Positions 1,188 through 2,856 are shown, counted from the first letter of the stretch. The stretch: DNA of 25,699 nt from an uncultured Sphingomonadaceae bacterium (GCA_964422665.1 CAYRCH010000001.1:26855-52553), one strand, 5' to 3'. Made by a program: numbers and translations. The notes: a model not told the origin generated them from the sequence alone.

Positions 1188-1979
1188 TCAGTCTACTGGG
1201 CGGCCTGAACCGAAGAAAAGCGCCTGGCTGATCGCCGCGCGAACGGTTGCCTCGGCAAACGGCTTGGTCACCAAATAGGTCGGTTCCGGCCGGTCTCCGG
1301 TCAGAAGGCGCTCCGGATAGGCAGTGATGAAGATCACCGGTACGCTGTCGATCGCAAGGATGTCGTCCACCGCGTCCAGTCCCGACGATCCGTCGGCAAG
1401 CTGGATATCGGCGAGCACGAGGCCCGGCGTCTTCTCCGCCACGACCTGCTGGGCCTGGGTGCGGGTGGCGGCCGTGCCGCAGATATCGTGTCCCAGCGAA
1501 CGTACCAGGTCTTCGAGCTGCATCGAAATGAGCGGCTCATCTTCGATGATCAACACGCTGGTCGTGCTCTCGCGGTCGATTTCGGCGATCGCCTCGCGCA
1601 CCAGCGCGGCAACGCCCGCCTCGTCGGTATCCATGATTTCCGCGGCTTCGGCCTCGGTAAAATCCTCGACCGTGGTCAACAGCAATGCCTGCCGGTTGAG
1701 CGGAGTGATCTTCCTGAGCTGGTCTTGTGCGCCAGCTTCGTGTTCGCCGGTGGGCTGCTCTGCAGCCACTTCCAAATAGGCGCTCGACCACACTTTGTTG
1801 AACGCAGCGTATAGCGGCACGCGCCCGCCTTCGAGGCTGGCGCGAAGCGTTTCATCGGCGATCGCTGCTTCCAGCGTAGCCTGGACAAATGCATCACCTG
1901 TTGATTGTGAACCCGTCAGAGCTCTTGCATAACGCCTGAGATATGGAAGTTGTGCGGCAACCTGTGCACCAATTGGCAT
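1188..1979 (-). CDS. phyR: PhyR anti-anti-sigma factor / response regulator
   Basis: N-terminal sigma-like domain (LPYLRRYARALTGSQSTGD...LLLTTVEDF) and C-terminal receiver (IIEDEPLI, LADIQLADGSSG, FITAYPERLLTG, KPF). Start placed at ATG 1979 (MPIGAQ), downstream of an EcfG-type promoter; the track's TTG start at 2054 lies upstream of that promoter. Confidence 0.95.
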   Translation of the reverse strand: MPIGAQVAAQLPYLRRYARALTGSQSTGDAFVQATLEAAIADETLRASLEGGRVPLYAAFNKVWSSAYLEVAAEQPTGEHEAGAQDQLRKITPLNRQALLLTTVEDFTEAEAAEIMDTDEAGVAALVREAIAEIDRESTTSVLIIEDEPLISMQLEDLVRSLGHDICGTAATRTQAQQVVAEKTPGLVLADIQLADGSSGLDAVDDILAIDSVPVIFITAYPERLLTGDRPEPTYLVTKPFAEATVRAAISQALFFGSGRPVD

Positions 1980-2011
1980 AAGACCCTTTTCCCCTTCGGA
2001 TATTGGGGCTG

Positions 2012-2036
2012 AACGAATAGCGCTCCTCATGGTTCC
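2012..2036 (-). promoter_or_regulatory. sigma-EcfG (SigT)-type promoter for phyR
   Basis: The minus strand reads GGAAC-N16-CGTT (plus strand AACG 2012-2015, GTTCC 2032-2036), an exact match to the alphaproteobacterial EcfG consensus, 33 nt upstream of the phyR ATG. Confidence 0.85.
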
Positions 2037-2146
2037 GCCGGCCGCGGAAAGCAAGCAGGAGGATGCGGCGGTTCCGACTTTTACGGCACTTCGATGTCAG
2101 GACACGGCGTGATTTTTTGCGGAACTGAAAAAAATTGCACCGACCG

Positions 2147-2171
2147 GGAACCGGCGCTTTGCCCGGGCATT
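2147..2171 (+). promoter_or_regulatory. sigma-EcfG-type promoter for the candidate sRNA
   Basis: GGAAC (2147-2151)-N16-CATT (2168-2171), one mismatch to CGTT. It lies immediately upstream of a two-hairpin element ending in a terminator. Confidence 0.65.
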
Positions 2172-2176
2172 TAGTG

Positions 2177-2266
2177 ATTGTCACCGCCGAGACCCCCCCT
2201 CCCGTCCAAGCGGCCGGTGATACGATCCCGAAAGGCCTCCGCCCCGTCCAGGGTGGAGGCCTTTTA
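2177..2266 (+). ncRNA. Candidate EcfG-dependent small RNA with two hairpins and C-rich loops (GsrN-like concept)
   Basis: Hairpin 1: TCACCG 2181-2186 pairs with CGGTGA 2215-2220, with a C-rich loop. Hairpin 2: AAAGGCCTCC 2231-2240 pairs with GGAGGCCTTT 2255-2264, then a T-run. CCCGTCCA occurs in both loops. No credible ORF. The 5' end is estimated from promoter spacing. Confidence 0.6.
2231..2265 (+). terminator. Rho-independent terminator, possibly bidirectional
   Basis: Perfect 10-bp inverted repeat, extendable by GCCC/GGGT, ending in TTTT; AAA on the 5' side. It also lies downstream of the minus-strand receiver gene. Confidence 0.75.
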
Positions 2267-2322: not shown

Positions 2323-2754
2323 TTAGCTGAGCGCGTCGCGAAGTCGAGCGATCAGACCGGCGCCCTTGCGGGAGCGGATCGCGTCCACCAGCTTGGCCGG
2401 ATCGTAAGGCTTCTCGAAAATCGGTCCAAGCGCGGCGATGTCTTCAGGTATGTCGTCGGGCGCGCCGGTCGAAAACACGATCTGCACATTGCGCAGGCCG
2501 AGCTGCGGAATCAGTTCGGCAAGCGCCCAGCCATCGTCGGCATCGGACAGGTGGACGTCGAGGACGACCGTATCGGGCTTTTCGTTTTCCAGCGCGGCCA
2601 TTGTACGGGCGACAGTCGCGCACCAGCTCACGCGTTCGGCCCCCGCATCCTTCAGCGCGTCTTCCAGCGCCATTGCGAGCAACGCGTCATCTTCTACCAG
2701 CAATACATGCCCGATTCGGCCTGCCGCGCTGGCTCGTTTCCCTGTTTCGGCCAT
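2323..2754 (-). CDS. Single-domain response regulator (receiver), FATGUY-like, GSR-associated
   Basis: Receiver motifs LLVEDD, VVLDVHL (phospho-Asp), VFSTGAP (variant of FATGY) and EKPY; no output domain. Confidence 0.85.
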   Translation of the reverse strand: MAETGKRASAAGRIGHVLLVEDDALLAMALEDALKDAGAERVSWCATVARTMAALENEKPDTVVLDVHLSDADDGWALAELIPQLGLRNVQIVFSTGAPDDIPEDIAALGPIFEKPYDPAKLVDAIRSRKGAGLIARLRDALS

Positions 2755-2830: not shown

Positions 2831-2856
2831 AACGCAGATCAATTGGCGCAGGTTCC
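2831..2856 (-). promoter_or_regulatory. sigma-EcfG-type promoter for the single-domain receiver gene
   Basis: The minus strand reads GGAAC-N17-CGTT (plus strand AACG 2831-2834, GTTCC 2852-2856), 77 nt upstream of ATG 2754. Confidence 0.75.

Follow-up and report, generated by a model that had tools for sequence, protein, structure and literature searches.

Does the intergenic region beside phyR in an uncultured Sphingomonadaceae bacterium encode a small RNA of the general stress response, and does that RNA carry one conserved loop or two? The question was raised by a first-pass annotation of the stretch of DNA that we analyzed (25,699 nt, hereafter the window), which had proposed a GsrN-like small RNA (sRNA) beside phyR with the same motif in both hairpin loops. 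Our sequence comparisons support a conserved small RNA on the plus strand beside phyR, with its own promoter and terminator and one exposed C-rich loop. The GsrN-like part of the proposal stands, in its layout, its promoter type, and its exposed C-rich loop, but the duplicated seed does not. We consider it likely, at a probability of roughly 75%, that positions 2180-2265 (+) specify an ~86-nt trans-acting small RNA of the alphaproteobacterial general stress response. The gene has a defined anatomy and strand, is conserved and syntenic, and is present in a single copy. The features of the locus are as follows.

1188-1979, minus strand: phyR, encoding 263 amino acids (Pfam PhyR_sigma2, PhyR_sigma-like, and Response_reg) and reading away from the sRNA gene
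2012-2036, minus strand: phyR promoter of the canonical EcfG type, GGAAC-N16-CGTT
2127-2136, plus strand: A-tract GAAAAAAATT, at about -53 to -44; relatives carry an A-rich tract at an equal distance upstream of GGAAC
2147-2151, plus strand: -35 box GGAAC (GGGAAC from 2146), present in 133/133 distinct loci
2168-2171, plus strand: -10 box CATT, 16 nt past GGAAC
2180-2265, plus strand: predicted sRNA of ~86 nt, with both ends predicted (start at 2180-2182, end in the U run at 2262-2265)
2179-2222, plus strand: 5' hairpin from folding, with stem 2179-2189 paired with 2211-2222 and a loop of ~21 nt
2193-2208, plus strand: conserved C-rich loop core C7-UCCCGUCCA, near-invariant in 92 distinct sequences
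2222-2232, plus strand: single-stranded linker ACGAUCCCGAA, with 2222-2229 unpaired at a probability of 0.91 or more
2230-2265, plus strand: intrinsic terminator hairpin of 15 pairs, G+C-rich, with a U run at 2262-2265
2323-2754, minus strand: single-domain response regulator gene (143 amino acids, Pfam), convergent with the sRNA gene
2831-2856, minus strand: the response regulator's own promoter, canonical GGAAC-N17-CGTT

Promoter, gene neighborhood, and distribution

The first-pass annotation had read a GGAAC-N16-CATT promoter ahead of the transcript, and this reading was borne out among relatives. Promoter counts were made on 133 distinct loci with enough upstream DNA, 124 of them with a recognized -10 box. 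The -35 word is extended to GGGAAC in 103 of those 124 loci. Between GGAAC and the -10 box, the spacer is 16 nt long in 121/124 loci; its sequence varies, but its length is constant. The -10 box reads CATT in 109 loci, CGTT in 12, AATT in 2, and GGTT in 1, with CGTA or CTTT in nine further loci. The conserved block begins 8 nt past the -10 box in 119 of the 124 loci, and in the window conservation switches on at 2179/2180, which is the predicted start site. Boxes at a fixed spacing, a free spacer, and conservation from the start site onward are, as read from these alignments, the picture of a promoter and its transcript. A match to GGAAC-N16-CATT is not significant by itself, as 11 of 100 shuffled versions of the window also contained at least one. 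We judged the promoter and the element to be more than chance because of their conservation and not because of motif counts in a single window.

Upstream of the -35 box, the A-tract recurs in relatives at about -45 to -55 and is also found in the gsrN promoters of Caulobacteraceae. It is likely to be an UP-like promoter element, judged by sequence. A promoter scan found no sigma-70-like promoter near the sRNA gene. The motif and the location of the promoter point to control by EcfG, for which the consensus -10 is CGTT. A different ECF sigma factor with a GGAAC -35 may instead drive the gene, because the -10 box is CATT in 109/133 members, whereas the genuine gsrN promoters that we retrieved for comparison retain GTT at this position. 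CGTT is found in 12 members, and the location favors EcfG. The same intergenic region holds two more GGAAC words, at 2121-2125 (+) and 2073-2077 (-), neither of which has a -10 box at 15 to 17 nt; both are probably due to chance.

The sRNA gene lies within the stress response locus. Gene order in its own genome is ecfG, nepR (-), a CHASE-HWE kinase gene (+), phyR (-), the sRNA gene (+), and the response regulator gene (-), with ecfG and nepR ~3 kb from the sRNA gene on the same contig. The response regulator (2323-2754) probably modulates the stress response in the manner of SdrG. In nearly all loci with enough flanking DNA, a phyR homolog lies upstream on the opposite strand, separated from the sRNA gene by either 150 to 300 nt or about 1.0 to 1.5 kb. 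A response regulator homolog lies downstream and convergent in most sRNA loci, but not all.

We checked the content of the wide gap in two loci, those of Tsuneonella troitsensis (L020) and Novosphingobium hassiacum (L016). In both, a gene for a CRP/FNR-family regulator fills the gap on the sRNA strand (L020:5320-6072 [+] and L016:3993-4790 [+]), and the sRNA keeps its own GGAAC promoter despite the intervening gene. A gap of 1.0 to 1.5 kb also occurs in Qipengyuania and in other Novosphingobium loci.

The gene is widespread within one part of its family. Based on the exact pattern of loop plus linker, its carriers in the Erythrobacter group and in Novosphingobium number at least 119 species. 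Such bacteria are common in sea and soil, and some serve in aromatic and lignin conversion. Among the matches listed, carriers span about a dozen named genera and include Erythrobacter, Qipengyuania, Porphyrobacter, Citromicrobium, Croceicoccus, Altererythrobacter, Tsuneonella, Pelagerythrobacter, Alteraurantiacibacter, Croceibacterium, and Novosphingobium. By BLAST, 11 further genera of the family contain matching DNA. We built a covariance model, R1, from 12 sequences; it matched 99 loci at full length with scores of 70 to 110 bits. It found one copy each in 13 of the 37 sampled genomes of the source family and none in 113 genomes from nine other families of the order. In the genome of origin, the gene is likewise single copy. 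Used in annotation, a covariance model of the R1 type would add one gene in well over a hundred genomes.

Structure of the RNA and its likely mode of action

The region 2170-2270 folds on the plus strand as two hairpins with a free energy of -46.2 kcal/mol (z = -6.0, 200 shuffles). The minus strand of the same region gives z = -2.6, and hairpin 1 is absent from it. The first hairpin presents the very C-rich loop that the first-pass annotation had described, with the quoted loop located at 2190-2210. At loop bases 2194-2203, the probability of being unpaired is 0.96 or higher, and the GUC at 2204-2206 is predicted to pair with the GAC at 2191-2193 inside the loop. The length of the C run ranges from 5 to 7 among relatives; otherwise, the loop core is nearly invariant.

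Comparison of related sequences supports the two-hairpin structure, which fits 98.5% of cells in the alignment compared with 89.9% after column shuffling and 48 to 53% or less with slid partners. Hairpin 2, which had been proposed as a terminator, covaries: both partners have changed in 13 of its 15 pairs, with pairing kept in 98.2% of cells. Relatives have 6 to 9 T after this stem. The window itself has only four U (2262-2265), and the site was not called by a simple terminator scan; even so, 2230-2265 has the G+C-rich stem followed by a U run that defines a Rho-independent terminator.

The same comparisons fix the strand. Hairpin 1 has a single variable pair, which is G-U in 59 sequences, A-U in 19, and G-C in 17 and so is always paired on the plus strand. 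The basal pair of the terminator is G-U in 88 of 95 sequences. Both pairs would be A-C mismatches on the minus strand, which assigns the RNA to the plus strand, as do the T runs that follow the stem in relatives. The promoter points the same way.

The two halves of the RNA are conserved differently. Across a dozen genera, the 54-nt 5' domain is held almost unchanged, stem included, as the terminator drifts freely. Column identity in the 5' domain averages 97.5% over 92 distinct sequences and reaches 99% or more in 30 of 50 columns; for the terminator of these sequences, which covaries, it is 78%. The first-pass annotation had proposed to test the hairpins and the loop motif for conservation and the stems for covariation; the hairpins and the first loop are kept and the terminator covaries, but hairpin 1 has an invariant stem. 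Covariation would be expected if the scaffold did no more than present a seed, so a frozen 5' stem is odd. Invariant and not covarying, this stem appears from the alignment to be under more constraint than a seed-bearing scaffold needs.

The linker ACGAUCCCGAA shows similar constraint. Its alignment columns 44-52 are invariant in alignment A1 and at least 99% identical in alignment A2, better conserved than a mere spacer requires. It may bind Hfq or RNase E, or it may add to the pairing as a second site.

On the reading that we favor, PhyR would free the sigma factor EcfG, and RNA polymerase would start at the GGAAC-N16-CATT promoter with help from the upstream A-tract. The first 44 nt of the RNA would form a stem presenting the 21-nt C-rich loop, C7-UCCCGUCCA, followed by the invariant single-stranded linker and then the intrinsic terminator. 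The loop core, with its anti-Shine-Dalgarno-like CCUCCC, is the presumed seed. It would pair with G-rich mRNA leaders or ribosome-binding sequences, and pairing would change the translation or stability of the mRNA, probably with Hfq, as in Caulobacter GsrN. We infer both the base-pairing mode and the involvement of Hfq. An hfq gene was found in the genome of origin.

The Hfq gene of this genome (G000:C6:28268-28690 [+]) encodes a tandem pair of Hfq domains in a single 215-amino-acid open frame.

We searched the genome of origin for targets of the loop using a crude gene finder and RNAduplex with a 22-nt loop sequence. The best pairing sites genome-wide were mostly repeat hairpins, described below. 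Across 2,980 5' regions, the real loop paired no better than shuffled loops (mean, -13.2 versus -15.7 kcal/mol), and this search found no convincing or conserved target of the loop. The word GGACGGGAGGG lies on the Shine-Dalgarno site of a gene for an MFS transporter (G000:C234:71-1342) and also on that of a gene for a SnoaL-like lipoprotein (G000:C90:649-89). We rejected both as targets: the transporter has an ortholog in the same genus only, with a degraded site, and the lipoprotein has no clear ortholog. The katG leader was likewise rejected, as its G-tract GUCGGGGGCG at -36 makes only about 5 to 7 contiguous pairs with the loop. Feedback on phyR was unremarkable, with a mean duplex energy of -16.0 kcal/mol compared with -13.7 kcal/mol for shuffled leaders.

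Ribosome-binding regions of phyR, at 1980-2005 (-) in the window and in related loci, often read GGGAAGGGG, which leaves one A-C mismatch with the sRNA loop.

Part of the sRNA sequence occurs in 22 sequencing runs. In the four RNA-library runs that we compared, the metatranscriptome contigs with the conserved part carry promoter-side DNA or span 6.5 kb and delimit no transcript.

Other readings of the conserved block

The invariance of the 5' domain bears on how the RNA acts. It is possible, though unlikely, that this is a real RNA that works mainly by protein binding or mimicry, for example by titrating an RNA-binding protein or by competing with the C-rich arm of the CCCCTCCCGC/GCGGGAGGGG repeat hairpins of the genome. 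The identity of the whole 5' domain, stem included, at 97.5% against 78% for the terminator would fit such a role, and nine loop bases match, base for base, the 5' arm of a palindromic repeat that the genome of origin carries in 36 copies. Among relatives, the repeat is confined to the source family, where it is present in 9 of 12 sRNA-bearing genomes and 7 of 25 genomes without the sRNA. Against this reading, the repeat is missing from three genomes that carry the sRNA and present in seven that do not, and related genomes are non-independent samples. Furthermore, C-rich and G-rich words match easily at 64% G+C, and we know of no candidate for the protein partner.

The repeat has the form CCCACCCC-N3-4-CCCCTCCCGC-NN-GCGGGAGGGG-N3-4-GGGGTGGG and is REP- or MITE-like. 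This palindrome occurs at G000:C1:54588-54671 and in 34 other places, none of them inside the window, and is often paired at a distance of 40 to 90 nt. Its core, CCCCTCCCGC-NN-GCGGGAGGGG, has 36 copies in the 2.5-Mb assembly and none in a reversed control. In a set of 60 relatives, it was found only in the source family, at 1 to 15 copies per genome.

A specific form of this idea is that the sRNA is an arm mimic that opens repeat hairpins in transcripts, or a decoy for a protein that recognizes such hairpins. We think this rather unlikely; if true, it would link the stress response with a family of repeats. The 9-nt identity between loop and repeat is a lead, not a finding.

A second alternative concerns the 8-mer CCCGTCCA, which the first-pass annotation had placed twice in the window, each time at a hairpin apex. 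Both copies are where they were said to be:

2201-2208, plus strand: CCCGTCCA, copy 1, in the loop of hairpin 1
2243-2250, plus strand: CCCGTCCA, copy 2, at the terminator apex and peculiar to the genome of origin

The apical placement holds only in part, as the GUC of copy 1 is predicted to be paired, and the first two bases of copy 2 (2243-2244) lie within the terminator stem. The remaining six bases of copy 2 are the entire hexaloop (2245-2250). From this arrangement, the annotation had proposed a duplicated seed, with CCCGUCCA in both hairpin loops giving bivalent binding of targets or of a protein. Besides the presence of both copies and the hexaloop made of six of the eight bases, C-rich terminator loops occur in a few other members, such as CCUCCCG in L029, L033, and L111. 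We nevertheless consider the duplicated seed very improbable. Among 132 distinct family members, only that of the window has the second CCCGTCCA, and the same-genus relative (L003) has GTCCGAATGCGGAC in its place. Elsewhere, terminator loops are unrelated tetra- to heptaloops, including GAAA, AAAA, CAAGA, and many others. Of 131 members, two have a word of at least 8 nt common to loop 1 and the terminator, each a different word, and 4 more share a 7-mer. By a rough estimate, the chance of such sharing is ~0.01 per genome, so that ~1.5 cases would be expected across the family; with two observed where chance predicts one or two, the duplication fits chance. Nor is the count of CCCGTCCA significant by itself, as 11 of 100 shuffles contained at least three copies. 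With the terminator copy confined to its own genome, bivalent binding through two copies of the motif falls as well. Based on these comparisons, the second CCCGTCCA either arose by chance or is very recent in its own genome and stands outside the mechanism, and the sRNA has one conserved C-rich loop.

A third alternative denies an independent RNA: hairpin 2 would be the terminator of the response regulator gene, and the conserved block would be regulatory DNA upstream of phyR or a 3' untranslated region on the minus strand. Hairpin 2 has A on one flank and U on the other and could work in both directions; on the minus strand, it lies 58 nt past the stop codon of the response regulator gene, and a terminator-like site was also called on that strand at 2157-2137. 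Loci that lack a response regulator homolog, such as L019, L029, and L046, keep the hairpin with a full-length match to the sRNA model. Because loci without the response regulator still keep the full RNA, the terminator belongs to the sRNA. The minus strand has only UUUC after the stem, folds without hairpin 1, and would read the conserved G-U pairs as A-C mismatches. The "terminator" at 2157-2137 consists of the self-complementary GG-AA-CC of the -35 box plus the A-tract, both of which are also found at gsrN promoters in another context, and a DNA site would need no covarying stem. This reading is therefore highly unlikely.

The last alternative, a small protein encoded by an open frame at 2135-2326 (63 amino acids, TTG start) or 2178-2330 (50 amino acids), can be set aside: both frames are present in the window but break between close relatives, in which the C run is 5, 6, or 7 nt long and terminator loops vary by non-multiples of three, neither has a Pfam match, and conservation tracks base pairs and not codons.

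Comparison with known small RNAs

A trans-acting sRNA beside phyR invites comparison with the stress-linked sRNAs of other alphaproteobacteria. An Rfam search of 1900-2500 at E<=10 returned only sub-threshold, terminator-like matches and no family match, which agrees with the earlier suggestion of novelty. Literature searches found no description of this phyR-adjacent sRNA family.

SuhB/MmgR (ar8) is reported to be the only sRNA characterized in Sphingopyxis granuli TFA, where it is Hfq associated and needed for stress resistance; a LysR-type regulator is reported at its promoter, and most of its regulon reportedly does not depend on the general stress response (bioRxiv 10.64898/2025.12.09.693200). 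The Rfam suhB model gave no match to the sRNA in 1900-2500. The SuhB of Sphingopyxis is a different RNA from the phyR-adjacent sRNA.

The Cuckoo/CcsR/ar14 RNAs (RF02344) are also stress-linked alphaproteobacterial sRNAs with a C-rich, anti-Shine-Dalgarno-like loop motif. They have two or more hairpins with CCUCCUCCC loops, whereas the sRNA described here has one conserved loop with another word. CcsR-type RNAs are transcribed downstream of a small DUF1127 gene. Upstream of our sRNA, in contrast, are its own promoter and then phyR on the other strand, with no DUF1127 gene. The ar14 model scored the sRNA at 14.8 bits, compared with a gathering threshold of 58.8, and the first-pass annotation was right to place the RNA outside the cuckoo family.

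Closer parallels come from GsrN and GsrN-like RNAs. In Caulobacter, GsrN recognizes the katG leader by pairing through six tandem C in its 5' loop and is stabilized by Hfq (PMC5869019). Tien et al. proposed in 2018 that sRNAs under EcfG-type sigma factors are prevalent beside the alphaproteobacterial stress locus, and reported Erythrobacter litoralis as having "no apparent gsrN-like gene" (PMC5869019). A 2019 study of the E. litoralis stress regulon does not mention a small RNA. For Rhizobiaceae, Brucella, and Bradyrhizobium, GsrN-like sRNAs have been predicted (Tien et al. 2018, Figure 9) from an intergenic position, a near-consensus EcfG site, and closeness to ecfG-phyR, all of which we also found here in silico, and they share an exposed C-rich 5' loop. 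They differ in sequence and clade, and several have transcriptome support, whereas the present sRNA is known from sequence alone.

We retrieved gsrN genes from Caulobacter, Brevundimonas, and Phenylobacterium through the loop word implied by published target sites. The GsrN model RF01529 ("CC3552"; gathering threshold, 50 bits) scored 88 to 103 bits on the Caulobacteraceae gsrN loci (Caulobacter and Brevundimonas), which served as a positive control, and had no match in 1900-2500, even at E<=10. Conversely, R1 had no match at the gsrN positions.

In layout, the two RNAs are alike. Both have an A-tract and an ECF-type GGAAC-N16 promoter, which in gsrN reads GGGAAC-N16-CGTT. Both transcripts open with a stem closing an exposed loop of six or seven tandem C, and both continue through a single-stranded, C-containing linker to an intrinsic terminator. 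Each is usually beside ecfG/nepR/phyR, at one copy per genome. They differ in detail: GsrN is ~106 nt long compared with ~86 nt here, and has an inner hairpin in its 5' domain and a second exposed 3' region, whereas our sRNA has no inner hairpin and a linker of 8 to 11 nt. The loop word is GACGCCCCCCGACUUGA in GsrN and C7-UCCCGUCCA here, the -10 is mostly CATT here, and the 5' stem covaries in GsrN but is invariant in our sRNA.

By the tests run, the sRNA is therefore GsrN-like in design but not a member of the GsrN family. Because RF01529 misses the window, R1 misses gsrN, and the layout is shared, the sequence evidence describes a new family of a known kind, the GsrN-like kind; the first-pass annotation had suggested a possible undescribed family. 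The family opens no new principle. The alphaproteobacterial general stress response has a single well-studied post-transcriptional arm, GsrN in Caulobacter, and for the Erythrobacter group and Novosphingobium the sRNA family is a concrete, testable candidate for such an arm. The shared design, in which an A-tract and an ECF promoter precede a 5' stem presenting a C-tract beside phyR, would thus have arisen, or diverged beyond recognition, in another order.
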